Numbered from the stretch's first letter, positions 4,965-63,319 are shown. The stretch is DNA of 64,000 nt from Dehalococcoidia bacterium (GCA_965116305.1 OZ220673.1:547362-611361), one strand, 5' to 3'. Program-made: numbers and translations. Notes: generated by a model not told the origin, from the sequence alone.

Positions 4965-5687
4965 ATGAGTGCGGATGCTGACTACTCTCCGGCCTTCTAC
5001 GCGCGTCACGCGCAGCGTTACGCCGAGGTAGCCCACAACTTCATCCACTCCGTCTACGACAACGCCTCCCACCCGGGGCTCAGGGATGATACCTCCCTGA
5101 TAGACCGCCTGATGGAGCTGGTGCCTGCCGGGTCGCGCGGGCTGGATGCCGGCTGCGGCGGGGGCGCCCGCGACGTCTTCCTCTACTGGCGGAAGGGGTA
5201 CGACATCTACGGCGTGGACGCCATCGAGGAGAACATCGCAGAGGCGCTCAGGCTGCATCCGGAGATCGCCGGGCGGGTGTCGGTGGCCGACCTTCGCGAG
5301 CCGCTCGGGTACCCGGACGCGTCCTTCGATTTCGTCCTGTGCAACGCCGTCATCCAGCACATCGATCCGGACACGGCCCTGAGGGTGACGCTGCCGGAGC
5401 TTGCCAGGCTGCTGAAAGACGGCGGCGTTCTCCAACTCCTGTTCAAGACAGGGAAGGGAGTGGCGACGGTCTACGACAGGCACTACGGCGAGGACAGGAC
5501 CTTCCAGCTCTATGACCCTGGCGAGGTGCTCGCCCTGTTGACGGACCTGGGCCTGGACCTGATCCCGGAGGAAGGCGCGAAGCTGGGTGGAGTCGTGTAC
5601 TTCACCGACCACAAGCCGATGGAGCATTGCGTTCTCTTCGCGCGCAGGGTCGTTTCCCCTCTCCCTCTGGGAGAGGGTGCCGCGTAG
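4965..5687 (+). CDS. class I SAM-dependent methyltransferase
   Basis: 240 aa with motif I LDAGCGGGARDV and a post-I acidic residue. The last about 10 codons (SPLPLGEGAA*) are supplied by a REP-like palindrome. Confidence 0.8.
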   Translation: MSADADYSPAFYARHAQRYAEVAHNFIHSVYDNASHPGLRDDTSLIDRLMELVPAGSRGLDAGCGGGARDVFLYWRKGYDIYGVDAIEENIAEALRLHPEIAGRVSVADLREPLGYPDASFDFVLCNAVIQHIDPDTALRVTLPELARLLKDGGVLQLLFKTGKGVATVYDRHYGEDRTFQLYDPGEVLALLTDLGLDLIPEEGAKLGGVVYFTDHKPMEHCVLFARRVVSPLPLGEGAA

Positions 5688-50285: not shown

Positions 50286-51389
50286 CTAGTGGGCGGCGAG
50301 GCCTGCGGCGACGGGACGCCCGTAGAGAGCGCGGGCGTTCTCGGAGAGCACGCCCGTCCGCTCCTCGCCGGTAATCTTCGCGTTCCCGAATATCTCGCTG
50401 AGCTCGTGCTTGCAGATCTCCGCGTTGACCTCGTGCGGGAAGTCGGATGAGAAGACGAAGCACTTCCCGCTCGTCAGGCGCAGCGCCTCGGAGATGAGCG
50501 GCTCCGTCCCTTCGCATCCCACGAACAGGCGTCCGTCGTGGATGTGGCGCAGGATGTAGTCGCTCACGCGCTCGCCGTCGCGCAACCGCAGCAGTTCGCC
50601 GCGCGGGTCGAGGTCGACGTGGGTCTCATAGGAGCGGTCGAACCGCTCCATGCAGAGCATGAACCACGCGACGCCGCCCTCGAGGAAGCCCCAGCGCGCG
50701 TTGGGGTAGCGGTCCAGGACGCCATTGAAGACGACGCCGGCGAAGGCGGCCATGAGCCCGACTGGATGTCCCATCGCGTGGACGGGCGCGTAGACGTTCA
50801 AGTGGTCGAAGCCCATCCCGCTGTGCGAGCCGCCGTGGACGGCGAGGCAGCAGCCCAGCCGGTCGGCCTCCTCGTAGACGGGCCAGTACTCCTTAGCGCC
50901 CAAGTGGTTCGGCAGCCCGCGCGTGGGGAGCATCGCGCCCGCCATCCCAAGCTCCTCCACCGACCGGCGCAACTCCCGCGCTGCCTCCTCAGGCTCCTGC
51001 ATGGGGATGAGGGCAAGTCCGACGAACCGGGGGCTGCTCTTGACGTAGGTCTCGTACAGCCAGTCGTTGTACGCCCGGCAGACTGCGATGGCCCAGTCCC
51101 TGTTGACGATATATCCGTAGGAGAGCCCGCCTGTAGGGAAGAGCGCCGCGCAGTCGATGCCCACCTCGTCCATGAACATCAGCCACTCTTCGACCCCGAT
51201 CTTGGGGAACGATCCCGGAGGCGTGGCCACCGGTTGAGCGGCGTGGAGATGATCGATCGGCGGGAAGATGTTGCCGAGGCTGCTCCCGCCTGCGCGGTTC
51301 AGGAACTCCTGCGGCATACGGCTCGCCACCGCCGCGATGTCCGTCACGAGGTGTCCGTCTCCGTCAACGACCTGCAACCGGTCTGCCAT
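50286..51389 (-). CDS. amidohydrolase-2 family protein
   Basis: VVDGDGHLV, LAVHGGSH and SSDFPHE. ATG 51389 is preceded by GAGGAGG. The track ORF opens at 51440. Confidence 0.85.
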   Translation of the reverse strand: MADRLQVVDGDGHLVTDIAAVASRMPQEFLNRAGGSSLGNIFPPIDHLHAAQPVATPPGSFPKIGVEEWLMFMDEVGIDCAALFPTGGLSYGYIVNRDWAIAVCRAYNDWLYETYVKSSPRFVGLALIPMQEPEEAARELRRSVEELGMAGAMLPTRGLPNHLGAKEYWPVYEEADRLGCCLAVHGGSHSGMGFDHLNVYAPVHAMGHPVGLMAAFAGVVFNGVLDRYPNARWGFLEGGVAWFMLCMERFDRSYETHVDLDPRGELLRLRDGERVSDYILRHIHDGRLFVGCEGTEPLISEALRLTSGKCFVFSSDFPHEVNAEICKHELSEIFGNAKITGEERTGVLSENARALYGRPVAAGLAAH

Positions 51390-51456
51390 GGCGTCTACCT
51401 CCTCGCGTGTACGGATGCGGTATAGCACCCGCCTCCACACACGTCAAAGCGCTGCC

Positions 51457-51500
51457 CGACCAAGGGGGCCAACACCCGTGAATTCTGGCCCCCTTGGTCG
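51457..51500. repeat. perfect 14-bp inverted repeat CGACCAAGGGGGCC-N16-GGCCCCCTTGGTCG
   Basis: A third direct copy CGACCAAGGGGGC lies at 51587-51599, with degenerate copies (ggccaccttggcc, gccttggttggggg) at 51532-51558. A separate 9-bp inverted repeat pairs cccatagac (51635-51643) with gtctatggg (51679-51687). Confidence 0.85.
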
Positions 51501-51916
51501 CTGGTCCACGAGTAAACCGGCCTGTCCATTTGGCCACCTTGGCCGCCTTGGTTGGGGGCGTTTCCCAGGCCATGGCCTGCTTCCCGCGACCAAGGGGGCA
51601 AGGGGGCCATCGAAAACAAAAGTTGTCGCCCTAACCCATAGACCTCGTTGATAGGTTGGACCGCGAGCTATAGACGCAGTCTATGGGTGCTGCCGGTACG
51701 ACGGTCATGCAATCAGCGTACGCGGGCAGGGCGCAACCGCGAAAGGGGCGGGTGTCACAGCGGGGGGCATAGTTGACCCTGCTCTTCGCTCGCGTGATAC
51801 TAGCCCCGCAAACGCCAGATCGGAGAAGTCAACCCCTAGTGCAGTCAACCCACGCCCCACCACGACGAGAACGGCAGCGCAGACTCCGGCGTGCCTACTC
51901 GACAGATTTGGGGACC

Positions 51917-52780
51917 ATGTTCATCGGGACTGCCGAGCAGGCGTTCAAAAGCTCCCGGTTTGAGAAGTATCTTTCCTCCGCTCAACTGATCTTCACCTCC
52001 CCGCCGTTCCCACTCAACCGAAAGAAGGCATACGGGAATCTCACCGGTGAGGCTTATGTTGATTGGCTCGCCAGCTTCGCTTCCCAGTTCAAGAGATACC
52101 TACGCGATGACGGGTCGATCGTCATTGAGATAGGCAATGCCTGGGAACAAGGTCATCCAACCATGTCAACGCTGGCCCTAGAGGCACTATTGAGGTTTCG
52201 CAAGGATGGCGACCTGTTCCTGTGCCAGCAGTTTGTTTGCGCCAATCCGGCGCGGCTTCCGTCTCCAGCACAATGGGTCAACGTAGATCGAACCCGCCTC
52301 AAGGATGCCTTCACAAACGTTTGGTGGATGTCCCCAACGGAACGACCCAAGGCGGACAACCGTAGGGTATTGTCGCCTTATAGCTCTGCAATGCAAGGGC
52401 TTCTACGAACCCAGCACTACAATGCGGGCAAGCGTCCCTCAGAACACTCTATTGGAGCTGAGTCATTCCTAACGGACAACGGAGGAGCCATCCCTTCCAA
52501 CGTAATCACAGTTTCCAACACAAGTGCCACCGACCCGTACCAGCAATACTGCAGAGATACTGGCATTCAACCACATCCAGCGAGGATGCCATCACGGCTT
52601 GCTGAGTTCTTTATCGAGTTCCTTACAGAACCGGGGGACTTGGTGATAGACCCATTTGGGGGAAGCAACGTGACTGGCGCAGCGGCAGAGTCACTTGGCC
52701 GTCAATGGGTGACTATTGAACCGGTAGAATTATACGCGGCAGCCTCTAAGAGTCGGTTCGTTCATGCCGATGGAAAATAA
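51917..52780 (+). CDS. beta-class DNA N4-cytosine methyltransferase, M.PvuII family
   Basis: Collinear, as far as I recall the M.PvuII sequence, with: MFIG...TSPPFPLNRKKAYGN..GEAYVDW, NPARLPSPAQWVN, KDAFTNVWW, LSPYS, RPSEHSIG...DNGGAIPSN, HPARMPSRLAEFFIEFLTEPGDLVIDPFGGSNVTG. Motif IV (SPPF) precedes motif I (FGGSN.TG). The track ORF opens at TTG 51773 and GTG 51839 is also possible. ATG 51917 aligns with the internal Met start of M.PvuII. Confidence 0.9.
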   Translation: MFIGTAEQAFKSSRFEKYLSSAQLIFTSPPFPLNRKKAYGNLTGEAYVDWLASFASQFKRYLRDDGSIVIEIGNAWEQGHPTMSTLALEALLRFRKDGDLFLCQQFVCANPARLPSPAQWVNVDRTRLKDAFTNVWWMSPTERPKADNRRVLSPYSSAMQGLLRTQHYNAGKRPSEHSIGAESFLTDNGGAIPSNVITVSNTSATDPYQQYCRDTGIQPHPARMPSRLAEFFIEFLTEPGDLVIDPFGGSNVTGAAAESLGRQWVTIEPVELYAAASKSRFVHADGK

Positions 52781-52781
52781 G

Positions 52782-52811
52782 TTGACAACGATAAGTACAG
52801 GTCCATAACAT
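52782..52811 (+). promoter_or_regulatory. sigma-70-type promoter TTGACA-N18-TAACAT ahead of the GHKL gene
   Basis: TTGACAacgataagtacaggtccaTAACAT begins 2 nt after the methyltransferase stop. GGAAGGA SD precedes ATG 52844. Confidence 0.45.
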
Positions 52812-52843
52812 TCTAAGTCCCCAGAACTACTGGAAGGAACAAT

Positions 52844-55099
52844 ATGCTTACATACGGCGCAACCAAGTACTTTGACGTTGACCCTAACCAAATCATCGTC
52901 GACGCCCGTAGCTTCGCTAGCTGGCGAAATGGCTTGCCTGAGTGGATAAAGAACTCTAGCGACGCCTACGACAGAGCCGGAGCACTGAGCGCGGACCGTG
53001 TTGTCGTGGTCATACTTGCACCCGCAGGCAAAGATGGATCGCCTGTGTTGGCTTGTCTGGACTTTGTAGGTATGACCTCTGATGACCTCATCGACAAACT
53101 CGCTCGGTACGGTGACCCTGAAGCCTCAGGATCTGGGACTCATGTCGTCGGCGGTCACGGTAACGGGGGCAAGCTGTTCGCCGTCGGCGGCTTCAAGGGC
53201 GACGTGGTCTGGCGAACCATAAAGCACGGTTTCCGCAGTGAGTACGGATTGGCAGAGCCCGGTCGCCCCGCTCTAGCCTTCGTGCTGGACGACATTGGTG
53301 AGGTTAAGGATCGGCCGTGCACGGACCTACCTTCCACTCTCAATGAATGGCTCAGAGCATTGAGTCTCTCGGTTGCAGATCTCCCGGCGGCCGCCCAAGC
53401 CGCTGCTCAGAGGGCAGACGGTGTTACTCTCGTGTGTGGTGCCCGTTCCGAACAATCATTCCAAATCCATGATAGTTTGATTCTAAATACTCTGCGCAGC
53501 CACCCACAATGTAAGACGCCGTTGGAGACCACTAAGCTATTTGTCGTAGCCAATGGGAAACTGTCAAATGGAGGTGCCGCACTCACCTTAGACGAAATCA
53601 CGCCCTATGAGGGATTCTCTGAACCTCTAACTGTATCTATACCACTTAGCCTGAACGATCCTTTTGGCCAGTCTCCTGTATCGACAACAGCTGGAGGTGC
53701 GCAGGGCACTCTAGAGCTCCGTACGTCAGATAAGCAGATGCCAGGAATGAAGGCCTTGCAAGGACGCCACACCATTGACTTCAAGCAGGGTTCGCGAATA
53801 CGAGGCAGTCGTTCAGTTAGGGAACTTGTTAGCAAGGGTCCTTTCACCGACCGCATCTACGGGCAATGCCAGCTGGATGCGTTGGTAGAGTCCTATGAAT
53901 CACAGACACGTGGTCCGCTTGTGGAGAGTCCGCTTGTACGTGCACTAGAAGAATGGGTAGGGGAACAGATTCTCACCTATGCCGATAAGATTCAGCAGGC
54001 ATCCATGGTGCAGGATAAGGCAACTAAAGACGAGGAGAAGATAAGGCGCCTCACCCAGCAGATGGCGAAGTTGAATCGTTGGATCAACCGCATCGTCGAC
54101 GAGCTTAGCCCAGGTGCCGGCGATGACCCAGATTGGGGAGGTGGGGGCAAGAAAACTGGAGGGACTCGATATCCTCTTCCTCTCGCACCAGTTGGCAGAA
54201 TAGCGATAGCCATAGACGAGAAGGTTGCAGGAGCCAAAGTTCCATTGGAATTCTCAACCTCCTTCTTTGGACTCGATGATGTCACTCAGGTCAGGCCTGT
54301 CAGCGTCGTTTGGCATTCGAGCAACCCACCTATCGCCGCATATAGCAACGTTACCGACATGGTCAATACATACCAGCCAGGAACAGCTGAGATATGGTGT
54401 GAATCGTCTACGGGAGTCGTCTCAAATCGCATAGAACTTAGGGTAATCGATTGTGATCGCATCGAACTGAGTGCCGCAACTATAGACGTTCCCATAGGCC
54501 GACGTCGTCATGTCTGGGCCACAGGAATCACTGCTGCAGGCGAAAGGCATGAAGGGATTCGCGTAAACTGGACCACGGATTCCAGTGATATTCTTCGAGT
54601 GGGACTTGCGGGTGTTATCACTGGGCTCAGCGAAGGAACTGCAACCGTGACAGCCAAGGAAGGAGATGGGACAGCAGCAAGCTGCTTGGTAACGGTAGTA
54701 CCAGCGCCAGAAGGCCCAGGAGGTCCCAACAGGCCGAGATACCTCCTGTCTGAAGTACAAAAGGCCCCCTACGACGAAGAGCCGCCCGTATTCCACAAGG
54801 ATAGTGGGTTGGTCACTCAGCGACAGGTCGATATTGAGCACAACGTCTGGTGGATTAATCTGGCCAGCCCTCTTGCACGACTCGTGTATGACCAACACGG
54901 TGAAGTGTCGGAGCAATGGGCCATGTATCTCGGGGAGAGGATAGCTGACGCAGCGATAGAAGCGGCCATGCAAGGCGCCGACCGCGGCGTCGAGAGCCGA
55001 CCTGTCAACGAGGTGCTAGAGGAAGTTTCGCAGCTGCGGATGCAGATTCTAGACAGCTTTACGCAAGAATTCGGAGCAACTAAACAGCTGGTGTTGTGA
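52844..55099 (+). CDS. GHKL (Bergerat-fold, MORC/MutL-like) ATPase fused to two Big_2 Ig-like domains; novel architecture
   Basis: 751 aa. N box EWIKNSSDAYD (ExxxNxxD, aa 33-43), G1-like LDFVGMTSDDL (aa 72-82) and G2 GGHGNGGKLF (aa 103-112). Coiled-coil aa about 385-420. Big_2 #1 is VSVVWHSSNPPIAAYSNVTDMVNTYQPGTAEIWCES...IELRV (aa about 452-535). Big_2 #2 is IRVNWTTDSSDILRVGLAGVITGLSEGTATVTAKEGDGTAASCLVTVV (aa about 538-619). The helical C-terminus is unrecognised. No signal peptide or TM. Confidence 0.75.
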   Translation: MLTYGATKYFDVDPNQIIVDARSFASWRNGLPEWIKNSSDAYDRAGALSADRVVVVILAPAGKDGSPVLACLDFVGMTSDDLIDKLARYGDPEASGSGTHVVGGHGNGGKLFAVGGFKGDVVWRTIKHGFRSEYGLAEPGRPALAFVLDDIGEVKDRPCTDLPSTLNEWLRALSLSVADLPAAAQAAAQRADGVTLVCGARSEQSFQIHDSLILNTLRSHPQCKTPLETTKLFVVANGKLSNGGAALTLDEITPYEGFSEPLTVSIPLSLNDPFGQSPVSTTAGGAQGTLELRTSDKQMPGMKALQGRHTIDFKQGSRIRGSRSVRELVSKGPFTDRIYGQCQLDALVESYESQTRGPLVESPLVRALEEWVGEQILTYADKIQQASMVQDKATKDEEKIRRLTQQMAKLNRWINRIVDELSPGAGDDPDWGGGGKKTGGTRYPLPLAPVGRIAIAIDEKVAGAKVPLEFSTSFFGLDDVTQVRPVSVVWHSSNPPIAAYSNVTDMVNTYQPGTAEIWCESSTGVVSNRIELRVIDCDRIELSAATIDVPIGRRRHVWATGITAAGERHEGIRVNWTTDSSDILRVGLAGVITGLSEGTATVTAKEGDGTAASCLVTVVPAPEGPGGPNRPRYLLSEVQKAPYDEEPPVFHKDSGLVTQRQVDIEHNVWWINLASPLARLVYDQHGEVSEQWAMYLGERIADAAIEAAMQGADRGVESRPVNEVLEEVSQLRMQILDSFTQEFGATKQLVL

Positions 55100-55106
55100 G
55101 GCGCTG

Positions 55107-55787
55107 ATGATCACGAAACACGAGAAAGTACTGGTCAGTGCCTTTAGACGATGGCCAGAACAGTCGTTTAGCGCAGAGGATCTTGTAGTCGCTTGTTGGA
55201 AAGAATACCCCGAGGATTTCGGACTTCAAGGTTACGAGAACTTATACCCTGATGCTAACGTCATTTATCGATATATCATGGGTCAGAATTCTATAGTGAA
55301 GAAACATAAATGGTTGCTTCAGACGCGAAGCAAAACCTATCGGCTGTCCACACAGGGCGCCTCCCATGTGCTGGCCCTGCTTGGAGACAGCCAGTCGACT
55401 GAAGATGGTCAACGACTGAGGATAGAACGCGCTCGTGAGGCTGTGTTGGCACGCCTACTCCGCAGTCGAGCGTGGATGAAGTACCAAAGGGGTGAGGAAA
55501 TTGTGTTCCGAGAAGCCTGCATGTTTTGGGGTATCATTCCTCGTTCAGCAGGCGAGGAATATCGCTTCGCCCGCAAGGAACTAGCGGACTCACTGTCGCT
55601 AGCCGAGGAGCGCATTCATCAGGCTCAGACATCCGAACTTTGGGTTCCTGAAGCTAACCGCTCCATCGACAACGAGACCCTGAACCAGCTCCGTAGCCTT
55701 GACACTGAACTTGTCCAGACATTCGCAGATGAAGTCGCAGGCATCGTCGGAAGAGTCATTGACCGAGGTCGGCTGAAGCAGGCTTAG
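55107..55787 (+). CDS. hypothetical protein; winged-helix-like N-terminus plus helical C-terminal half
   Basis: 226 aa. The start is 7 nt after the GHKL stop, with a GAGG SD overlapping that stop. The N-terminal about 90 aa has a helix-helix-helix-hairpin pattern (KVLVSAFRRW...SAEDLVVACWKEYP...NVIYRYIMG...KHKWLLQTRSKTYRLSTQG). No catalytic motif recognised. Confidence 0.7.
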   Translation: MITKHEKVLVSAFRRWPEQSFSAEDLVVACWKEYPEDFGLQGYENLYPDANVIYRYIMGQNSIVKKHKWLLQTRSKTYRLSTQGASHVLALLGDSQSTEDGQRLRIERAREAVLARLLRSRAWMKYQRGEEIVFREACMFWGIIPRSAGEEYRFARKELADSLSLAEERIHQAQTSELWVPEANRSIDNETLNQLRSLDTELVQTFADEVAGIVGRVIDRGRLKQA

Positions 55788-55835
55788 GGTGAAGACCCCA
55801 GGCCTGTCGAATCCGCCTAAGGCAATTACGTGTGA

Positions 55836-56969
55836 GTGATGGAGGCTAAGTTGGCAATTGGCCATTCCGAATCGACCGTGCACGAAATGCTGTCCACGGC
55901 CCCGGTGGATTGGGAGTCAACTCTAGATGCAATTCTAGCTCTAAGCTCATGGCGTGGAGGATTATCAAACCAGAACCATGAGATTCTGACGCGGCGTTTC
56001 GGGCTTGTCTCAGGAGAAGTCGAGACGCTTGAGGCTATCGGTAAAGATCTAGGAATTACCCGTGAACGTGTGAGGCAGATCCAAGCTAAGGCTCTTCGCC
56101 GAATTCGACCGCGCATCGATTCGGTCAAGTCCTACGGCACACTTACTTCACTGGTACGAGAGGAGGTAGCTAGGCAGGGCGGTGCCCTCCGGAAAGAAGG
56201 CGTTCTTGCCTTGCTCGATTCAGGGAAGCAATCTCTACGCTACCGTCCAGACATGGCCATAGCTTTTATGCTGTGGATGTCACCCCTATTGATTGAGTTA
56301 CCCAAGAAGGCCAGCAATCGATGGATCGTGTATGCCTCTAAAGAAGTAGCTTCCCAACTGACGACTGTAACCAAGCGCATCCATGAGTATCTCCGAAGAA
56401 GAGGACCACTCGAACGCCTTCGCCTAGTGGGAGATATCACGAACGATGAGGAGGAAGCAGCGGCTGTATCTGCTGCGCTTGCCGTTGACGTGGCAACAAC
56501 CGAGAGTGAAGGGTATGTGTGGTTGGTCAATTCGCCGAGATGGCATTTCGTCGTGGCCAGTGTACGACAGATTGGGACTTCCGCGCACTTTATGGAAATC
56601 ACCCGCCGAGTCAACGATAAGCTAACCCCCGACAACCGAATGACAGAGCGTGCAGTGCACGCCATCCTCGGAAATTATGAGCCGACAGTCTTTAGAAGGG
56701 TTGGTCTTGGAACGTTCGGTTTGGCCGAATGGGGTCTCCCGGCGGCGAAGGATAGCGTAGACCTTGTATGCCAAATCCTTGAAGGCGAGACTGCTTGGCT
56801 CACCACTCAACAGATTGTCGTGAAGGCGCGCTCTCTCGGGTGGCGAACCAAGCCGGAGAGTATTGTTATTGCACTCGACTTGGAGGACCAACGACCCAAC
56901 CGGCGCGTACGCCGGGTAGGACCAGCCACCTCTATCAGGTATGGACTGAGTTGGTGGAACGACCCTTAG
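55836..56969 (+). CDS. sigma-70 region-4 HTH protein with two C-terminal HARE-HTH-like winged-helix domains
   Basis: 377 aa. LSNQNHEILTRRFGLVSGEVETLEAIGKDLGITRERVRQIQAKALRRIR is a textbook sigma-70 region 4.2, but regions 2 and 3 are absent. HFMEITRRVNDKL...VFRRVGLGTFGLAEWG and WLTTQQIVVKARSLG...VRRVGPATSIRYGLSWW match the HARE-HTH ending (R-h-G-x-G-x-a-x-L-x-x-W). Confidence 0.8.
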   Translation: MMEAKLAIGHSESTVHEMLSTAPVDWESTLDAILALSSWRGGLSNQNHEILTRRFGLVSGEVETLEAIGKDLGITRERVRQIQAKALRRIRPRIDSVKSYGTLTSLVREEVARQGGALRKEGVLALLDSGKQSLRYRPDMAIAFMLWMSPLLIELPKKASNRWIVYASKEVASQLTTVTKRIHEYLRRRGPLERLRLVGDITNDEEEAAAVSAALAVDVATTESEGYVWLVNSPRWHFVVASVRQIGTSAHFMEITRRVNDKLTPDNRMTERAVHAILGNYEPTVFRRVGLGTFGLAEWGLPAAKDSVDLVCQILEGETAWLTTQQIVVKARSLGWRTKPESIVIALDLEDQRPNRRVRRVGPATSIRYGLSWWNDP

Positions 56970-57149
56970 TTGAGCCCTGGCGCTCCCCACTCCACTGACA
57001 CGCGCCCCTTACGCAATCGCCCCACGACCTCGTACGCTGGTCGGTGATGGCGCGCCGCCGTCGAGGCTAGCCCCGGCTCGGGGGTCAGGGCGTGCCTAGC
57101 GCGTGCAGGAGTGGCGTGGCCCACAATGGCGCAGTTTGGCACACTTTGG

Positions 57150-57275
57150 AAGGGGTGGTTCGACAGGCTCGCCATGAGCGGGGCCATCCCGAGAGATACC
57201 TCGGCTGCGCTCGGCATGACAAGCACCCCGCGCCGCACCGCCTCTGGATTCCAGCCTGCGCTGGAATGACGGGAA
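57150..57275. repeat. REP-like cluster (types A, D inverted, B variant)
   Basis: ggtggttcgacaggctcgccatgagcgg, ccgagagatacctcggctgcgctcggcatgac and ctggattccagcctgcgctggaatgacgg. Confidence 0.75.
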
Positions 57276-57315
57276 TGGCGCAGGAACGACGAGGGCAGTG
57301 GGGGTCAGGCGTGGG

Positions 57316-58629
57316 CTAGCGCAGGGCGATGAGTGTGCCCGCTTCCTCGGAGGTGACGTAGAGGCCGTGCTCCGTTACAACGATCTGGCCGTTGACCGGG
57401 ACACCCGTCTGGATGACCTGGGCTGGCTCGCCGGTAGCCCTGTCGACGACGTGGACCTCTCCCGCATCGTTGCCGATATAAATAGAGCGGCCTGCCGCTG
57501 CCGGGGCAGCATGGATGAGCGCTCCGGTGTCGTACTCCCACAGCAAGATCCCATCGGCGACCGACAGCGCATGGAGCCTTCCATCCCTGCTGCCCGCGTA
57601 TGCGACGCCATCGAGGACCGCCGGACCGCTCAGGGCGCTGTCGCGGGCGAGGACCCGTCCCCAGACCAGCCCCTTGGGGAGCGGCGGTTCCGGCTGCAAC
57701 CCCCAGATGAAGAACTGCTGCCGCCAGGAACGGAGCGCGCGCTCGAACGGATACTCCAGCTTGCTCCAGTCGATCGTCGCCAGTCTCCCCCGGCCGGTGC
57801 CGATGAGGAAGTAGTCCCCGGTGAAGACCGGACTCTCCGCCAGGGCGTTGACGGTATCGAAGATGAGGCGCTTCCTGCCGGTTGTGAGGTCGAGCACGTA
57901 GACGAGGCCGTCGTCTGTGGCGAGCGCCATCAGGTCGCCCTGGAACGCCGGAGGCGCAACGATACTCCCGTCGGCGGCGAAGGCCCAGAGCTGCTCTCCT
58001 GTCTGAGCGTCGACGGCGTAAAGCGTGCCGTTCCACGACCCCGCGTAGACCACACCACGGTAGACGGCAGGTGACGCGAAGGATGCGCTGTCAGCCTGGA
58101 AACTCCATAGTTCCGCGCCTTCCCAACGGTCCATCGCGAGCAGACGCCCGTCGCGAACCGCTACGTAGACGGCGTCCGGCGTTACGGCAGGGGTAGTGAC
58201 CGTCACGGAAGAGAGTTGGCGTTCCCAGAGGACATCGCCGGTGGCGCTGTCCATCGCAACGAGCCGGTTGTCCCCTGTGCCGAGGAAGAGCTGTCCATCG
58301 GAGACGGCAGGCGCGGCGGGAAGCGGATGCTCCGATTCGAACCTCCAGCGCTCCTCACCTTCGAAACCGCCATGGAGCGGTGCGGCTGCCGTGTGCGCGG
58401 CGTCGCGGCCTGCCATCGCCCAGTCGCCGGCATCCGTTGGCGCGTTCGTCTGTGTCGCCGGCTGCGGCACAGGCCCGGTGAAGACGCCAGAGGCCCAGAG
58501 GCCCCAGACCAGCAGGATGGCGCCGAGGATGCCGGCAAGCGCGAGCCACCTGGTCCGGGAACGTGAACGGACTCCACGTTCAGCCGCAGTGTGCCACGTG
58601 TCCCGCTGACTGCGGAGAGGGCTGGTCAT
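57316..58629 (-). CDS. membrane-anchored PQQ-like (BamB/YVTN-type) beta-propeller repeat protein
   Basis: 437 aa with an N-terminal TM (WLALAGILGAILLVWGLWA). Repeated G-x-x-LW motifs are GDVLWERQ, GAELWSFQ, GEQLWAFA and GILLWEYD. Confidence 0.8.
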   Translation of the reverse strand: MTSPLRSQRDTWHTAAERGVRSRSRTRWLALAGILGAILLVWGLWASGVFTGPVPQPATQTNAPTDAGDWAMAGRDAAHTAAAPLHGGFEGEERWRFESEHPLPAAPAVSDGQLFLGTGDNRLVAMDSATGDVLWERQLSSVTVTTPAVTPDAVYVAVRDGRLLAMDRWEGAELWSFQADSASFASPAVYRGVVYAGSWNGTLYAVDAQTGEQLWAFAADGSIVAPPAFQGDLMALATDDGLVYVLDLTTGRKRLIFDTVNALAESPVFTGDYFLIGTGRGRLATIDWSKLEYPFERALRSWRQQFFIWGLQPEPPLPKGLVWGRVLARDSALSGPAVLDGVAYAGSRDGRLHALSVADGILLWEYDTGALIHAAPAAAGRSIYIGNDAGEVHVVDRATGEPAQVIQTGVPVNGQIVVTEHGLYVTSEEAGTLIALR

Positions 58630-59114: not shown

Positions 59115-59345
59115 AGGAGGCCCTCACCCACGCGCTAAAGCGCGTTGCCCTCTCCCAGGGGGAGAGGGGACAATACCACCTGAGAGGATGTTGCGCGCTA
59201 AAGCGCGGGACTCCGCCTCCGGCTCCGCTCAACATGACAAGCGCACATGCCCCGCCGCACCGCCTCTGGATTCCCGCCTTCGCGAGAATGACGGGGGCTG
59301 CGCCCCGCGTCGCCCCTCACCCGCAGGGGCGGGCCTTGTGGCACA
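59115..59345. repeat. REP-like cluster (type C inverted, D-like inverted, type B and others)
   Basis: ccctcacccacgcgctaaagcgcgttgccctctcccagggggagagggg, ...gcgcgctaaagcgcggg...caacatgac and ctggattcccgccttcgcgagaatgacgg. Confidence 0.75.
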
Positions 59346-59377
59346 ATGCACCTGATACGCCACGTGGAGGATGAACG

Positions 59378-60127
59378 ATGCCCCAGGTAGTGCTCCTGCG
59401 ACACGGCGAAAGCGACTGGAACCTCTCCAACCGCTTCTCCGGCTGGACCGACGTCGACCTCACCGACACCGGACGGGAAGAGGCCGCACGCTCCGGGCGG
59501 CTGCTGCTCGAGGAGGGGTTCACCTTCGACGTCGCCTATACGTCCGTCCTCAAGCGCGCCATCCGCACGCTCTGGATCGTTCTCGATGAGATGGACCTGA
59601 TGTGGCTCCCCGTCATCCGCGACTGGCGGCTGAACGAGCGTCACTACGGCGCGTTGCAGGGGCTCAACAAGGCCGAGACCGCAGCCGAGCACGGCGAGGA
59701 GCAGGTGCTCCTCTGGCGCAGGAGCTACGACGTTCCGCCGCCCGCGCTCACGCCCGACGACGAGCGCCACCCCGGGCGCGACCCGCGCTACGCTTCCATC
59801 CCCGCGGACGAGATGCCGCTCACCGAGGCGCTCAAGGAGACGGTCGCGCGCTTCGTGCCGTACTGGGAGAGCACCATCGCGCCGGACATCCGCGCGGGCA
59901 AGCGCGTCCTCATCGTCGCGCACGGCAACAGCCTCCGCGCGCTCGTGAAGCACCTCGACAACATCTCGGACGCCGACATCATCGACCTCAACATCCCCAC
60001 CGGCGTTCCGCTCGTCTACGACCTCGCGGACGATCTCACGCCGCTCGGCAGCCGCTACCTGGGCGACCAGGCCGCGGTCGAGGCGGCGGTGGCGGCGGTC
60101 GCCGCGCAGGGCAAGGCGTCGGCGTAG
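59378..60127 (+). CDS. gpmA: 2,3-bisphosphoglycerate-dependent phosphoglycerate mutase
   Basis: 249 aa with [11 protein letters not shown] (catalytic His), [20 protein letters not shown] and [10 protein letters not shown]. Confidence 0.95.
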
Positions 60128-60141
60128 GGCGGGGCGGGCGC

Positions 60142-61431
60142 TCAGTCGGCAGGGGCCTCGGTGCGCTGGTCGTGGCGCCAGATGCCCCGCCACGTCAGTC
60201 CGGATGCCGTCGTGACGCTCAGGCAGACGAGGCCGTTGATGATGAACGCCCCGGGCACCCCGGCGAGCGATGACACCCCACCGATGACCGCCGAGCCGGT
60301 GCCGTTCCCCAGCCCGGCGAGGATCGAGGAGAAGCTGCCCACGCGGCCACGGTAGTAGTCGGGCGCCACGAGCTGGATGAGCGCCTGCCTCGCCGTGAAG
60401 CTGACGACGTCCATGAGGCCGAGGAAAGCCAGGACGGCGAGCGCGACGAAGAACCACGACGACAGCGCGAGCGCGGCGAGTCCCAGCATCGAGAGCCCGA
60501 GCGAGTAGCCCACGTTGGCGAGCACGATCATGACGCCCTTGCGTGGCGGGTCGCCCATGCGGAGGAGGATGCCGGTGCCGAGGAAGGAGCCCGCCGCGGG
60601 CGCCGCAACGAGCATCCCCAGGCCGATCGCATCCACACCGTACACGTCTTCCGCCAGCGCCGGCATGATGATGCGGAAGAACCCGAACGACATGACACCG
60701 AAGTCCATGAGGTACGCGCCCCAGAGCACCTCCTTCGTCCTCAGGTAGCGCGCTCCTTCCCATATCGCCGCGAGCGATACGCGTCGGGCCTCCCCGATCT
60801 GCTCCCCGGACGTGCGGATCGCTATCGTCGCAAAGACGGCCAGCAGGAGGAACGCGGCGTTGACCGCGAACGCCCAGCCCACGCCCACCAGCGCGATGAG
60901 CACTCCGCCGACGAGCGGCCCGCCGAACAGCGTGCCCTGGCTCAGCGCGCCGAACCAGGTGATGCCGTTCATGACGTGGCTCCTCGGCACGAGACGGGGC
61001 AGGAACGCCCGCTCCGCCGGACGCCCCAGGATGCTCATCCCGGACCAGAAACTGGCGAGCAGCCACAGGTGCCATACCTGCACGGCCCCTGTGAATATCA
61101 GCACGGGCAGCAGGGCCAATCCGGCGAAGTTGGCTGCCTGCGTGTAGATGAGGAGTTTCTTCCGGTCCACCGCGTCGGCGAGCGCCCCGCCCAGGAGGCC
61201 GAGCACGATGACCGGGAGCGTCATGAATATGCCGGTGATGCCGAGGTCCAGCGTGGAGCCGGTGAGGTCGAAGACCAGGAAGCCGAGGAGGAGTTCGCGC
61301 ATGTTCCGCGCGAGCCCCTGCAGCAGCCCCTGTGCCCAGAACAGCTGGAAGTCGCGGATCGCGAGCGCGCCCCACCTTCCCAGTGGGGCGTCCCCGGCGC
61401 TCGATTCCTCCCCGTGTCGCTCGGTCGCCAT
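60142..61431 (-). CDS. MFS transporter
   Basis: About 429 aa from the internal Met (MATERHGEE...). About 12 TM, with MFS motif A-like GGALADAVDRKKLLI. Confidence 0.85.
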   Translation of the reverse strand: MATERHGEESSAGDAPLGRWGALAIRDFQLFWAQGLLQGLARNMRELLLGFLVFDLTGSTLDLGITGIFMTLPVIVLGLLGGALADAVDRKKLLIYTQAANFAGLALLPVLIFTGAVQVWHLWLLASFWSGMSILGRPAERAFLPRLVPRSHVMNGITWFGALSQGTLFGGPLVGGVLIALVGVGWAFAVNAAFLLLAVFATIAIRTSGEQIGEARRVSLAAIWEGARYLRTKEVLWGAYLMDFGVMSFGFFRIIMPALAEDVYGVDAIGLGMLVAAPAAGSFLGTGILLRMGDPPRKGVMIVLANVGYSLGLSMLGLAALALSSWFFVALAVLAFLGLMDVVSFTARQALIQLVAPDYYRGRVGSFSSILAGLGNGTGSAVIGGVSSLAGVPGAFIINGLVCLSVTTASGLTWRGIWRHDQRTEAPAD

Positions 61432-61534
61432 CCCGCCCACTCTATCACCGAGCTTCCCACCGCGCCGTTTGCCACGCCGCCGCCCGCGCCGTATCGTTGC
61501 GGCAGCCACCCCACCACCGCACAGGAGGCCCGTC

Positions 61535-63319
61535 ATGGTAGAAGACCGCGCCATCGCAGCAGACCCCAGCTGGGGCGAACACGACGCCGACGAATGGGCG
61601 GACGCAATCACGACCGCGATGAAGCTCGGCGGGGTGGAGCACTTCTTCTTCGTCTCAGGCTCCGAGATCGGCTTCTACCAGGAGGCCGTCGCGCGCGCCG
61701 CCGCGAAGGGCTGGCCCGCGCCGCGCCTCATCACCGTGACGCACGAGGGCTCGGCGCTGAACGCCGCGCTCGGCAGCGCGATGGTGCGCGAGCAGCCGGC
61801 AGCTACAGCAGCGCACGTGGACGTGGGCACGTTCAACTACGGCGCCGGGCTCCACACCGCGTGGCGGGGGAGTTACCCGGTCCTCATCACGGCAGGCGCC
61901 GGACCGCGCGCCTACCCGGGCTCGATGCGCGGCGCGCGCGGCAACAGCGTGCAGTGGGTGCAGGAGCCGCGCGACCAGGGCGAGATCGTGCGGCAGTACA
62001 CGAAGATCGACCACCGGCTCGACCACACGGACAACCCCGGCCTCATCGTCAGCCGCCTGCTGCAGGTCGCGATGAGCGAGCCGCGCGGGCCGGTCTACAT
62101 GACGGTGCCGCAGGAGGCGGCGATGCTGCCGCTGCCGGGCAAGACGCGCTTCCCGACCCGCGACGAGCTGGGCATCGCGCGCCCCGCCTGGCCGGACCCG
62201 TCGGACGCGAAGCGGGTCGCGGAGTGGCTGGTGAAGGCGGAGAACCCGGTCGTCATCCTCGGGCAGTCGGGACGCAACAGCGGGTCGGTCGAGCCGCTCG
62301 TCCGTCTGGCGGAGCTGCTCGCGCTGCCGATGATGGACTCGGACCGCACGATGACGATGAACTTCCCGACGACGCACCCGCTCTACGGCACGGGGCCGTC
62401 AGCCGCGCAGGCGGACGTGGTGGTCGTCATCGAGACGCCGGTGCCATACACGCCGTCGAACGCGCCGCGCCCCGGCACGAAGATCGCGTGGGTGGACCCG
62501 GACCCGGTGCAGTCGCGCTACAAGACGATGGAGTTCCACGCCGACGTGTGGCTGCCGGTGCTCGCGGGGCCGTTCGCCGACGCGGTCTACGAGCAGGCCG
62601 CGGGGATGCTGTCGAAGGCAGACATGGGCCGCATCGAGGAGCGGCGCGAGCGGTTGGCGCAGCGGAAGCAGGAGATACGGAACCAGGACGAGGACGCCGC
62701 GATGCGGGTAGCGACGCGCGACCCCATCAGCCCGCGCTGGGTCGGCTACCAGATCGGGCAGATGCTGGAGGAGCAGGCCATCGTGTTGGACGACACGCTC
62801 AGCTCGACCGCCGCGTTCCGTCCGTACCACGGCCGCAGCCTGCCGGGCTCGTACTTCAAGAGCGGCGGCAGCGCGGGCGGCTGGGGCACCGGCGCCGCGT
62901 TCGGGGCGAAGACCGCCGCGCCCGACCGCGACGTGGTGCTCGTGACCGGCGACGGCTACTTCATGTTCGGCAGCCCGCTCGCGGCGTTGTGGTCGTCGGG
63001 GCACTACAAGACGCCGTTCCTGACGGTGGTGTTCGTCAACAAGTCGTACAGCACGGGCACGGCAGGCGTGGACGGCGCGTACCCCGGCGGCTACGCGGCG
63101 TCGGCGGGCTACGAGGGCGGGTTGTTCGACCCGCCGCCGGACTTCGCGAAGCTGGCGGAGGTGGCGAACGGCTACGGGGAGTCGGTGACCGACCCTGCGG
63201 AGGTCGGCCCCGCGCTGAGGCGCGGACTCACCGAGGCGCGGAACGGGTCACCCGCCGTCATCGCGGTGCAGTTGCCGACGCTGCCGGACGAGCTGCACAA
63301 GCTGGGCGGGACGCGGTAG
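61535..63319 (+). CDS. thiamine-pyrophosphate-dependent enzyme (acetolactate synthase large-subunit-like family)
   Basis: ATG 61535 is preceded by AGGAGG. The N-terminal TPP-pyrimidine domain has FFFVSGSEI...HEGSALNAALG. The TPP motif is TGDGYFMFGSP...VVFVNKSY. The first 129 aa of track ORF 61148-63319 are discarded. Confidence 0.85.
   Translation: MVEDRAIAADPSWGEHDADEWADAITTAMKLGGVEHFFFVSGSEIGFYQEAVARAAAKGWPAPRLITVTHEGSALNAALGSAMVREQPAATAAHVDVGTFNYGAGLHTAWRGSYPVLITAGAGPRAYPGSMRGARGNSVQWVQEPRDQGEIVRQYTKIDHRLDHTDNPGLIVSRLLQVAMSEPRGPVYMTVPQEAAMLPLPGKTRFPTRDELGIARPAWPDPSDAKRVAEWLVKAENPVVILGQSGRNSGSVEPLVRLAELLALPMMDSDRTMTMNFPTTHPLYGTGPSAAQADVVVVIETPVPYTPSNAPRPGTKIAWVDPDPVQSRYKTMEFHADVWLPVLAGPFADAVYEQAAGMLSKADMGRIEERRERLAQRKQEIRNQDEDAAMRVATRDPISPRWVGYQIGQMLEEQAIVLDDTLSSTAAFRPYHGRSLPGSYFKSGGSAGGWGTGAAFGAKTAAPDRDVVLVTGDGYFMFGSPLAALWSSGHYKTPFLTVVFVNKSYSTGTAGVDGAYPGGYAASAGYEGGLFDPPPDFAKLAEVANGYGESVTDPAEVGPALRRGLTEARNGSPAVIAVQLPTLPDELHKLGGTR

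Follow-up and report, generated by a model that had tools for sequence, protein, structure and literature searches.

A cytosine-methylation-linked cassette with a predicted GHKL-S5 ATPase in a Dehalococcoidia bacterium: a candidate member of a widespread restriction-modification-type system

An earlier, first-pass annotation of a 64,000-nucleotide stretch of DNA from a Dehalococcoidia bacterium (GCA_965116305.1 OZ220673.1:547362-611361; the whole stretch is called the window here, and positions in it are counted from its first letter) singled out a cassette of four genes, referred to below as g1 to g4, as a candidate system for discriminating self from non-self. Here we report that this cassette appears to be a member of a widespread and uncharacterised, cytosine-methylation-linked system of the restriction-modification (R-M) type that is organised around an ATP-gated DNA clamp, a reading in which we place slightly better than even confidence. 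We favour it because of the domain identities of the four proteins, the co-evolution of g2 with g3, the association of the pair with cytosine methylases of two unrelated families, the presence of reader-type accessory proteins and the mobile contexts in which the genes are found. The proposal of self/non-self discrimination is supported by the computational checks described below and survives them, while the role in defence is itself something that we infer.

Results

The four open reading frames (ORFs) of the cassette are co-directional and, just as had been claimed, tightly packed (51773-52780, 52844-55099, 55107-55787 and 55836-56969), with gaps of 63, 7 and 48 nucleotides (nt) between them; their features are collected in Table 1. 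The product of g2, a protein of 751 amino acids (aa), had been described as a Bergerat-fold ATPase with two immunoglobulin (Ig)-like Big_2 domains, and it is from invariant motifs and predicted structure only that we could sustain this description. Neither Pfam, NCBIfam nor PADLOC returned a significant match to g2: the sole borderline Pfam match was to Big_2/Big-like, no Pfam GHKL model matched the ATPase portion, and the sole PDB sequence match below 0.1 paired the Ig-like region (aa 544-623) with a beta-1,3-glucanase (1.8e-06). In an alignment of 74 homologues, however, the Bergerat-fold motifs E33xxxN37xxD40, D73xxG76 and G103-GHGNGGK110 are invariant or at least 85% conserved, and R356, presumably the basic residue of the S5 domain, is invariant. 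When the AlphaFold2 (AF2) model of g2 (predicted local distance difference test score, pLDDT, 85) was compared with the PDB by Foldseek, the top matches of ~aa 1-440 were MORC2/3/4 and TRAP1/Hsp90 (E 1e-9 to 1e-8 over ~440 columns), at target-normalised template modelling (TM) scores of 0.45-0.54 and sequence identities of 11-15%. By its motifs and predicted fold, g2 is a GHKL-S5 ATPase whose nearest relatives in structure are MORC2/3/4 and TRAP1/Hsp90. Assignment to MORC sensu stricto was tried and rejected, since a regular expression for the S5 motif GhXhhpXXRhl (taken from PMC2292703) found it in 0 of the 74 members; the Pfam model HATPase_c_3 was likewise unmatched by diverse g2 members, the best value being 0.085 in one of them.

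The remainder of g2 is best described with reference to the two architectures of its family, type A (to which the window belongs) and type B, which are defined below. The long helical hairpin that follows the ATPase module is kept in both. The Ig part, in which the AF2 model places strands between residues 450 and 619 and for which Foldseek returned the tandem Ig domains of LigA and SbsC, has an occupancy of 0.1-0.5 in type B, and is hence accessory and absent from the sister architecture. The C-terminal domain carries the motif FPxVLLSGxDxDP...VYQRPQDV..GIYWIN..PLA and found no match in PDB sequence searches or in Pfam.

The product of g3 (226 aa) is predicted with high confidence (pLDDT 93) to consist of an N-terminal winged helix and a helical domain, in agreement with its earlier description as winged-helix-like. 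It has a conserved aromatic loop (F38, L40, G42, Y43, Y47, P48) and few invariant polar residues, and it found no significant match in Pfam, NCBIfam, PADLOC or PDB sequence searches. The best Foldseek matches were MukF chains of MukBEF (E 0.035-0.063, TM 0.30) and forkhead and PadR winged helices, none of which reaches 1e-3; in a comparison with the kleisin subunits (winged helix plus helical) that bridge the ATPase heads of DNA-entrapping SMC-type defence (Wadjet/MukBEF), chain E of JetABC matched at E 1.1 besides the MukF chains. We also considered g3 as a hidden type II endonuclease, a candidacy that we reject on the AF2 model and Foldseek, as no nuclease fold occurs among its 209 structural matches.

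To place these proteins in a family, ORFs were called in all fetched loci (~90, identified by L numbers below) and searched iteratively with the four window proteins, and the neighbours were clustered and counted; a locus is termed well-flanked when no less than 2.5 kb of sequence extends to each side of it, and a methylase was counted when it lay within 3 kb. Homologues of g2 make up 105 clusters in the protein collection, and 200 relatives were confirmed among GTDB species-representative genomes, spanning Chloroflexota, Acidobacteriota, Planctomycetota, Alpha- and Gammaproteobacteria, Nitrospirota, Bacteroidota, Verrucomicrobiota and several lineages of the candidate phyla radiation (CPR); no g2 homologue was found in the phage database, and IMG/VR yielded 6 loci only. 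The conserved unit is a co-evolving pair of g2 and g3, not a block of four genes: g3 adjoins g2 in ~79 of 88 loci, and the pairwise identities of the two proteins correlate with r=0.94. The claim of a four-gene system therefore held in that homologues are co-localised in unrelated phyla, but not in its extent, which reduces to the pair.

The g2-g3 pair is accompanied by a cytosine methylase in ~80% of loci and occurs in two architectures. In type A, a g2 of 750-800 aa is followed by g3, and a PvuII-like methylase is present in 27 of 33 well-flanked loci, where it may be upstream, downstream or convergent and often overlaps the pair or lies less than 30 nt away. These partner methylases are all at least 36% identical to one another and form one PvuII-like clade, with the SPPF motif present in 39 of 42. 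In type B, g3 comes before a g2 of 590-700 aa that has no Ig domains and retains the ATPase module, the hairpin and the C-terminal domain. Here there is no N4-methylcytosine (m4C) methylase; a cytosine-C5 (C5) methylase is found in 12 of 16 well-flanked loci, together with Vsr in 8 of the 16 (compared with Vsr in 1 of 48 type A loci), and stop and start codons often overlap, for example along the series g4-like, g3, g2, Dcm, Vsr. Many junctions across the family overlap by 1-4 nt or are less than 30 nt wide. Readers of the g4 type were present in 12 of 16 type B loci versus 1 of 33 type A loci in the genome set, so that the lineage of the window (L091, L093, L001 and L011), which joins a type A core to a short g4, is exceptional.

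In the window, the methylase of the cassette is g1, which had been called an unambiguous member of the M.PvuII family of m4C methyltransferases. This identification is firm: the protein matches PF01555 (1.5e-29), the PADLOC model MTase_II (1.9e-90) and, over its full length, the M.PvuII structure (PDB 1boo, 2.2e-78), and it contains the SPPF motif. The mechanically called ORF of 335 aa is probably over-extended, because the window DNA upstream of ~51850 shows frame-breaking indels when aligned with L091 (a Chloroflexota metagenome contig and 97%-identical relative with the same insertion site and flanks as the window) and because the L091 gene was called from an ATG equivalent to 51917; the true start would be that ATG, giving a protein of 287 aa. 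No R.PvuII-like endonuclease, C-protein or small helix-turn-helix ORF was found in the cassette, and no nuclease family matches any of the four proteins, so the reported absence of the usual partners of such a methylase was correct. Among other hexamers in the 64-kb window, GGATCC was observed 0 times versus 5.2 expected and AAGCTT once versus 5.8, a sample that is too small to interpret.

The last gene, g4, encodes a protein of 377 aa in which a sigma-70 region 4 and two HARE-HTH domains had been recognised. Both hold: the former lies at aa 42-91 (Sigma70_r4, 2.2e-12), and the latter are supported by family alignment as HARE-HTH-type winged helices at ~aa 232-303 and 306-374 (the Pfam HARE-HTH match being weak, 0.046). 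No catalytic-looking invariant residues are present in the family alignment. In comparative genomics, HARE-HTH has been predicted to discriminate modified DNA within R-M systems (PMC4738411, PMC10853773). At E<=1e-10, 336 clusters share the core of g4, and their proteins range from 330 to 1465 aa; besides HARE-HTH, the longer ones contain one to six repeats of the RNA-polymerase alpha C-terminal domain (alpha-CTD) and sigma region 4 once or twice. In one sub-clade of these readers the DnaA C-terminal helix-turn-helix replaces the alpha-CTD, and a weak HNH match (E 0.0025) is seen. The only modules in g4 are DNA-binding helix-turn-helices, and we read the protein as a DNA-reader subunit, possibly one that other modification-based systems also use, and not as a sigma factor. 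A separate observation concerns L107 (298-4095), where a 1265-aa relative of g4 with three alpha-CTDs, two sigma region 4 copies and one HARE-HTH is encoded directly upstream of a TGT-family gene. The latter matches only the general TGT family (which includes DpdA), and the co-directional cluster contains, in addition, a gene for a DUF87 ATPase and might represent a Dpd-type system of DNA modification.

Composition and ends set the cassette apart from its surroundings. The G+C content, taken in 500-nt windows, is 50-57% from 51750 to 57000 and 64-72% on both sides; the sharp contrast that had been reported is thus real and coincides with the cassette, but the value given for the island, 32-45% G+C (versus ~70% outside), was too low. 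The genes of both flanks are on the opposite strand and belong to ordinary metabolism, with two Amidohydro_2 proteins and an epimerase upstream and a PQQ-type beta-propeller downstream. Placed at the two ends of the island are 44-bp arms that constitute the strongest inverted repeat in 51000-57700. They match at 34 of 44 positions, and the best 44-mers in 30 composition-preserving shuffles reached 27-31, with none at 34; in L091 the corresponding arms (150-193 and 5442-5485) match at 41 of 44. A metagenome scan for the inverted repeat gave one true further copy, in L096, the other five hits being chance 21-mer matches. There, an orthologous amidohydrolase flank (51% aa identity) is followed by the left arm at the same position (2000-2043) and then by unrelated DNA. 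The 44-bp repeats were not found around other family members, no transposase or recombinase was found inside or adjoining the cassette and no target-site duplication was seen, nor is there an integrase at the island edges or a tRNA gene in the 64-kb window. The cassette is a discrete insert bounded by inverted repeats, and its site may be a hotspot of insertion or exchange, as the L096 left arm precedes different DNA at the orthologous position. Within the explanation that we favour, the cassette would have been acquired horizontally and would have arrived as a small repeat-bounded unit.

Small palindromes lie just outside the left repeat, at 51457-51500 and 51634-51688; one of these outer palindromes has a perfect 15-nt stem (CGACCAAGGGGGCCA/TGGCCCCCTTGGTCG) and the other (ACCCATAGAC...GTCTATGGGT) is kept in L091 and L096, and for both a role as terminator or in protein binding is conceivable. 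The promoter-like match TTGACC-17-GATACT at 51773-51801 is not above shuffle expectation, and the scan for promoters and terminators gave nothing that exceeds it.

Beyond methylases and g4-type readers, several other genes adjoin the g2-g3 pair at some loci. The most frequent encodes a conserved protein of ~75 aa, found immediately upstream of the pair in 28 loci of both architectures and absent from the window; it has the motif RLAxxRTNxxLxxIRxLGNxSNxxxYxYTEEE...KIF...FKL and matched no known family. An Mrr_N-only protein (192 aa), in which no catalytic domain was found, is encoded upstream of g2 in the type A loci L014, L015, L027, L029 and L069 and is a putative modified-DNA reader accessory. 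Immediately upstream of g2 and co-directional with it, 7-8 loci, some of them without a methylase, carry a VapBC-like pair (a MazE-like antitoxin and a PIN toxin), while the variable neighbours also include HEPN-MNT and, once, a TIR-domain gene. PADLOC and Pfam scans of 128 neighbour ORFs, which were made without a baseline for defence-island enrichment, were dominated by C5 methylases, with the rest heterogeneous, and no recurrent helicase or nuclease cluster was found among the neighbours of g2-g3. In L093 (14567-19031; a 62% relative) and L100 (1647-5828; the Ensifer plasmid described below), the pair is adjoined by an AAA_5 ATPase (~584 aa), a ~410-aa protein and a PF01555 methylase, perhaps as a neighbouring system akin to McrBC or LlaJI, perhaps as one more accessory.

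Mobile contexts occur sporadically and comprise integrase, conjugation genes, transposases and a plasmid. The last is the conjugative plasmid pCTYH.Ch1_3 (NZ_CP118613.1, locus at 59223-62548) of a cultured carrier, Ensifer adhaerens CTYH.Ch1, on which genes for the 75-aa protein and for g2 and g3 are present, each with the annotation 'hypothetical'. Disrupted copies were also seen: in L001 (10415-12049) a DDE transposase lies between g2 and g3, and in L048 (2166-5601) g2 is split into pieces ~1.2 kb apart.

Table 1. Features of the cassette in the window, and examples of accessory genes at related loci
Feature	Position	Strand	Basis or remark
Left 44-bp terminal inverted repeat	51714-51757	.	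At the G+C break, 16 nt before the g1 ORF
Probable non-coding leader/promoter region of g1	51758-51916	+	Frame-breaking indels versus L091
g1, M.PvuII-family N4-cytosine DNA methyltransferase	51917-52780 (mechanical ORF from 51773)	+	PF01555, PADLOC, 1boo
g2 aa 1-360, predicted GHKL ATP-binding and S5-type transducer domain	52844-53923	+	Motifs, AF2, Foldseek
g2 aa 363-421, predicted long helical hairpin (coiled coil)	53930-54106	+	AF2 helices H363-394, H397-421
g2 aa 446-622, two predicted Ig-like (Big_2-type) beta-sandwich domains	54179-54709	+	Pfam borderline, AF2, Foldseek
g2 aa 626-751, conserved C-terminal domain, unassigned fold family	54719-55099	+	Conserved in both architectures
g3, partner of g2	55107-55787	+	N-terminal winged helix, then helical domain
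g4, predicted DNA-reader protein	55836-56969	+	Sigma-70 region 4, helical linker, two HARE-HTH-type winged helices
Right 44-bp terminal inverted repeat	56996-57039	.	27 nt after the g4 stop; more degenerate than in L091
~75-aa upstream protein	L003 7759-7992		Example
~75-aa upstream protein	L001 7707-7952		Example
~75-aa upstream protein	L093 9711-9953		Example
~75-aa upstream protein	L100 6659-6886		Example
Mrr_N-only protein	L027 3240-3818		Example
MazE-PIN loci	L009, L013, L019, L030, L042 (9232-9908), L062, L080

Discussion

In the mechanism that we propose, g1 would mark the DNA of the host itself, and a dimer of g2, held together by the C-terminal domain, would close its N-terminal gate upon binding ATP in the manner of MORC, Hsp90 and MutL. 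Together with g3, this clamp would be loaded onto unmarked DNA, with modification status being read by g4 through its HARE-HTH domains and, elsewhere, by proteins of the Mrr_N type. Since no nuclease is detectable, the clamp might directly block replication and transcription of unmarked DNA by MORC-like entrapment and compaction, or the C-terminal domain of g2 might hold an unrecognised catalytic site (motif LLSG-D-DP...YQR-QD...WIN), or a host nuclease or other host factors might be recruited. Taken to its conclusion, the option of blocking would amount to restriction without cutting, in which the dimer of g2 with g3 clamps onto unmethylated DNA, is loaded by readers made of alpha-CTD, sigma region 4 and delta-type HARE-HTH modules, and silences or entraps its target as a prokaryotic counterpart, and possibly the ancestor, of eukaryotic MORC silencing. 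To this specific version we give limited credence.

Several findings weigh against the R-M-type account. In the core, Pfam, NCBIfam, PADLOC, PDB and Foldseek searches reveal no domain of a nuclease, helicase or other effector, and the observation made at the outset, that nuclease, helicase, phospholipase, TIR, Sir2 and PglZ domains are all missing, applies to the core as far as can be detected; the system, moreover, is known from genes and predicted structures alone. Six of 33 type A and 4 of 16 type B well-flanked loci have no DNA methylase within 3 kb, which classical restriction logic would not tolerate. The identities of methylase and g2 correlate weakly (r=0.28), and the methylase changes side and strand between loci, which suggests that it may be a swappable accessory. 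Beyond the cassette, neighbours are mostly housekeeping genes rather than defence islands. Finally, CAGCTG is not avoided in the 64-kb window (23 observed versus 23.5 expected), a count that is uninformative on restriction unless CAGCTG is the target of g1.

Some of these points would be expected if g2 and g3, with or without g4, were a methylation-independent module of defence or abortive infection and the methylases were separate, orphan or solitary genes that cluster with it on mobile DNA. The 18-25% of well-flanked loci that have no methylase, the low methylase-g2 correlation, the varying position and orientation of the methylase and the resemblance of variable neighbours to alternative effectors (TIR, PIN-MazE, HEPN-MNT) all fit such a module. 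We nevertheless think it rather unlikely, given that two unrelated families of cytosine-specific methylase are each found with one architecture at 75-82%, that the methylases often overlap or are translationally coupled with g2 or g3, and that the type A partners all fall into the single SPPF-bearing clade whereas other neighbours are heterogeneous. About equally unlikely, in our view, is a non-restrictive role in epigenetic or other maintenance, with the ATPase and its partner loading or activating the methylase, or aiding repair at methylated cytosines as a MutL-like helper of Vsr. MutL stimulates Vsr, the GHKL-S5 module of g2 is common to MutL, Hsp90 and MORC, and type B loci carry Dcm with Vsr. 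Dcm-Vsr pairing is, however, common whatever the neighbours, and M.PvuII-type enzymes work alone. Loading of a methylase by an ATPase has a precedent in MANTIS (bioRxiv 10.64898/2026.09.23.753747), but the near absence of Vsr from type A loci (1 of 48) goes against a helper of repair, and a sporadic mobile spread with reader-type accessories suits conflict systems better than housekeeping.

The inverted repeats raise the alternative that the cassette is cargo that serves a mobile element, as an addiction module or through anti-restriction methylation, and not the host. The repeats stand exactly at the ends of the island, at this site in L096 the left one precedes other DNA, and the system is found on a conjugative plasmid; yet neither transposase nor recombinase is in or next to the cassette and the repeats were not found around other family members, and we hold this alternative to be improbable. 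An R-M-like module can, besides, be selfish and defensive at once. Least probable of all, to the point of being nearly negligible, is a conventional type II R-M system in which g1 is paired with a small endonuclease, g3, and the other genes merely lie alongside. In its favour, g1 is a close homologue of M.PvuII, type II endonucleases are often unrecognisable by sequence, and g3 has a faint match to the PADLOC PD_DExK model (E=0.014), but the confident model of g3 has no alpha/beta nuclease core, its structural matches include 0 nucleases in 209, its invariant polar residues are few, and it accompanies g2 also where no PvuII-like methylase is present.

If the function that we propose for the R-M-type system is true, the result would be a compact form of methylation-based immunity that takes two to four genes and has a GHKL clamp, not a nuclease, helicase or P-loop ATPase, as its motor. 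It would also provide a tractable bacterial model of MORC-type ATPases that act on DNA in response to methylation, and would help to explain why readers built of RNA-polymerase modules recur beside the system and possibly beside the TGT/DpdA-like cluster. Uncultured phyla carry the family widely, current defence catalogues lack it, no Pfam, NCBIfam or PADLOC model exists for it, and the carrier plasmid of Ensifer adhaerens CTYH.Ch1 makes experiments feasible.

Comparison with known systems

That the gene content matches no named system, as the first-pass annotation had it, agrees with our searches, since Pfam, NCBIfam and PADLOC name none. Significant matches from PADLOC-DB v2.0.0 were confined to methylase models on g1; g2-g4 had none there, and no signature of BREX, DISARM, Druantia or Dnd (PglZ, BrxC, DrmA/B, DruE, DndF-H) was returned. 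In the literature we found no description of the gene set, only the general paraMORC theme and the unrelated systems Shedu-GHKL, MANTIS, MADS and CapK, with a mention in the original HARE-HTH paper (PMC3272235) being possible. The PvuII type II R-M system shares with the cassette a full-length M.PvuII homologue with SPPF, but the R.PvuII-like endonuclease and the C-protein are absent and the partners are g2-g4 instead. The mza system (MzaABCDE) also brings together a methylase, a GHKL-type ATPase and a sigma-70-related protein (PMC9523054; NCBIfam/PADLOC names). Membership in it was considered and rejected: g4 scores 46 bits against NCBIfam NF041931, for which the cut-off is 800, over aa 42-92 only, and matches PADLOC MzaA at 1e-9 over 63 aa, the resemblance being limited to the helix-turn-helix of sigma region 4 (50-60 aa), while none of the PADLOC Mza models matches g1, g2 or g3 at E<=0.1.

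BREX and MANTIS (Gao_RL) resemble the cassette in combining methylation-based self-marking with ATPases. BREX has yielded no classical restriction endonuclease, and there are proposals of 'sensor' domains of the Ig-like and helix-turn-helix kinds (PMC12839542); for MANTIS, ATPase-dependent loading of the methylase has been shown (bioRxiv 10.64898/2026.09.23.753747). The cassette differs from both in having no PglZ, BrxC, BrxL, PglX or helicase-nuclease, in its small PvuII-type m4C methylase, and in an ATPase of the GHKL rather than the AAA+/P-loop kind. Shedu type I-D, which is paraMORC3, joins a GHKL ATPase to a DUF4263 PD-(D/E)XK nuclease (PMC12137116), whereas no DUF4263 match was obtained here in Pfam or PADLOC and the C-terminal domain of g2 is without a PDB or Pfam match. 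MADS, compared by description only, is an operon of eight genes (mad1-8, with MAD6-8 mandatory; bioRxiv 10.1101/2023.03.30.534895) as opposed to the four of the window cassette.

The eukaryotic MORC2/3/4 proteins and Hsp90/TRAP1, the best structural matches of g2 aa 1-440, work as dimeric clamps gated by ATP. Foreign or methylated DNA is compacted and silenced by MORCs. At 11-15% identity, g2 differs from the eukaryotic MORCs in having no CW or chromo reader domains and in being paired with a separate winged-helix subunit and a methylase gene. The closest precedent proposed by the first-pass annotation, MORC and paraMORC, was in the right neighbourhood, MORC2/3/4 being with TRAP1 at the top of the Foldseek matches. 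Like prokaryotic MORC and paraMORC proteins, g2 is predicted to combine a GHKL domain with intact ATP motifs and an S5 transducer with a basic finger, and like paraMORCs its family shows operon linkage to cytosine methylases and Vsr, a sporadic and laterally mobile spread and some TIR and HNH links. Unlike MORC and paraMORC, it lacks the MORC-specific S5 motif and a HATPase_c_3 match; unlike paraMORC, it is linked to no superfamily II helicase or restriction-fold nuclease (a weak HNH match occurs in the one reader sub-clade) and has its own architecture of coiled coil, two Ig domains and a novel C-terminal domain, with an obligate winged-helix partner and, frequently, the 75-aa upstream protein. 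Operons of GHKL-S5 ATPases with cytosine methylases and Vsr were predicted in 2008 (Iyer, Abhiman & Aravind, PMC2292703), so that the general theme is not new. The system stands within this broad paraMORC theme, yet, by its motifs, architecture and partners, it appears to be a distinct family, and what is new here would be that family, with an architecture of its own and an obligate partner.

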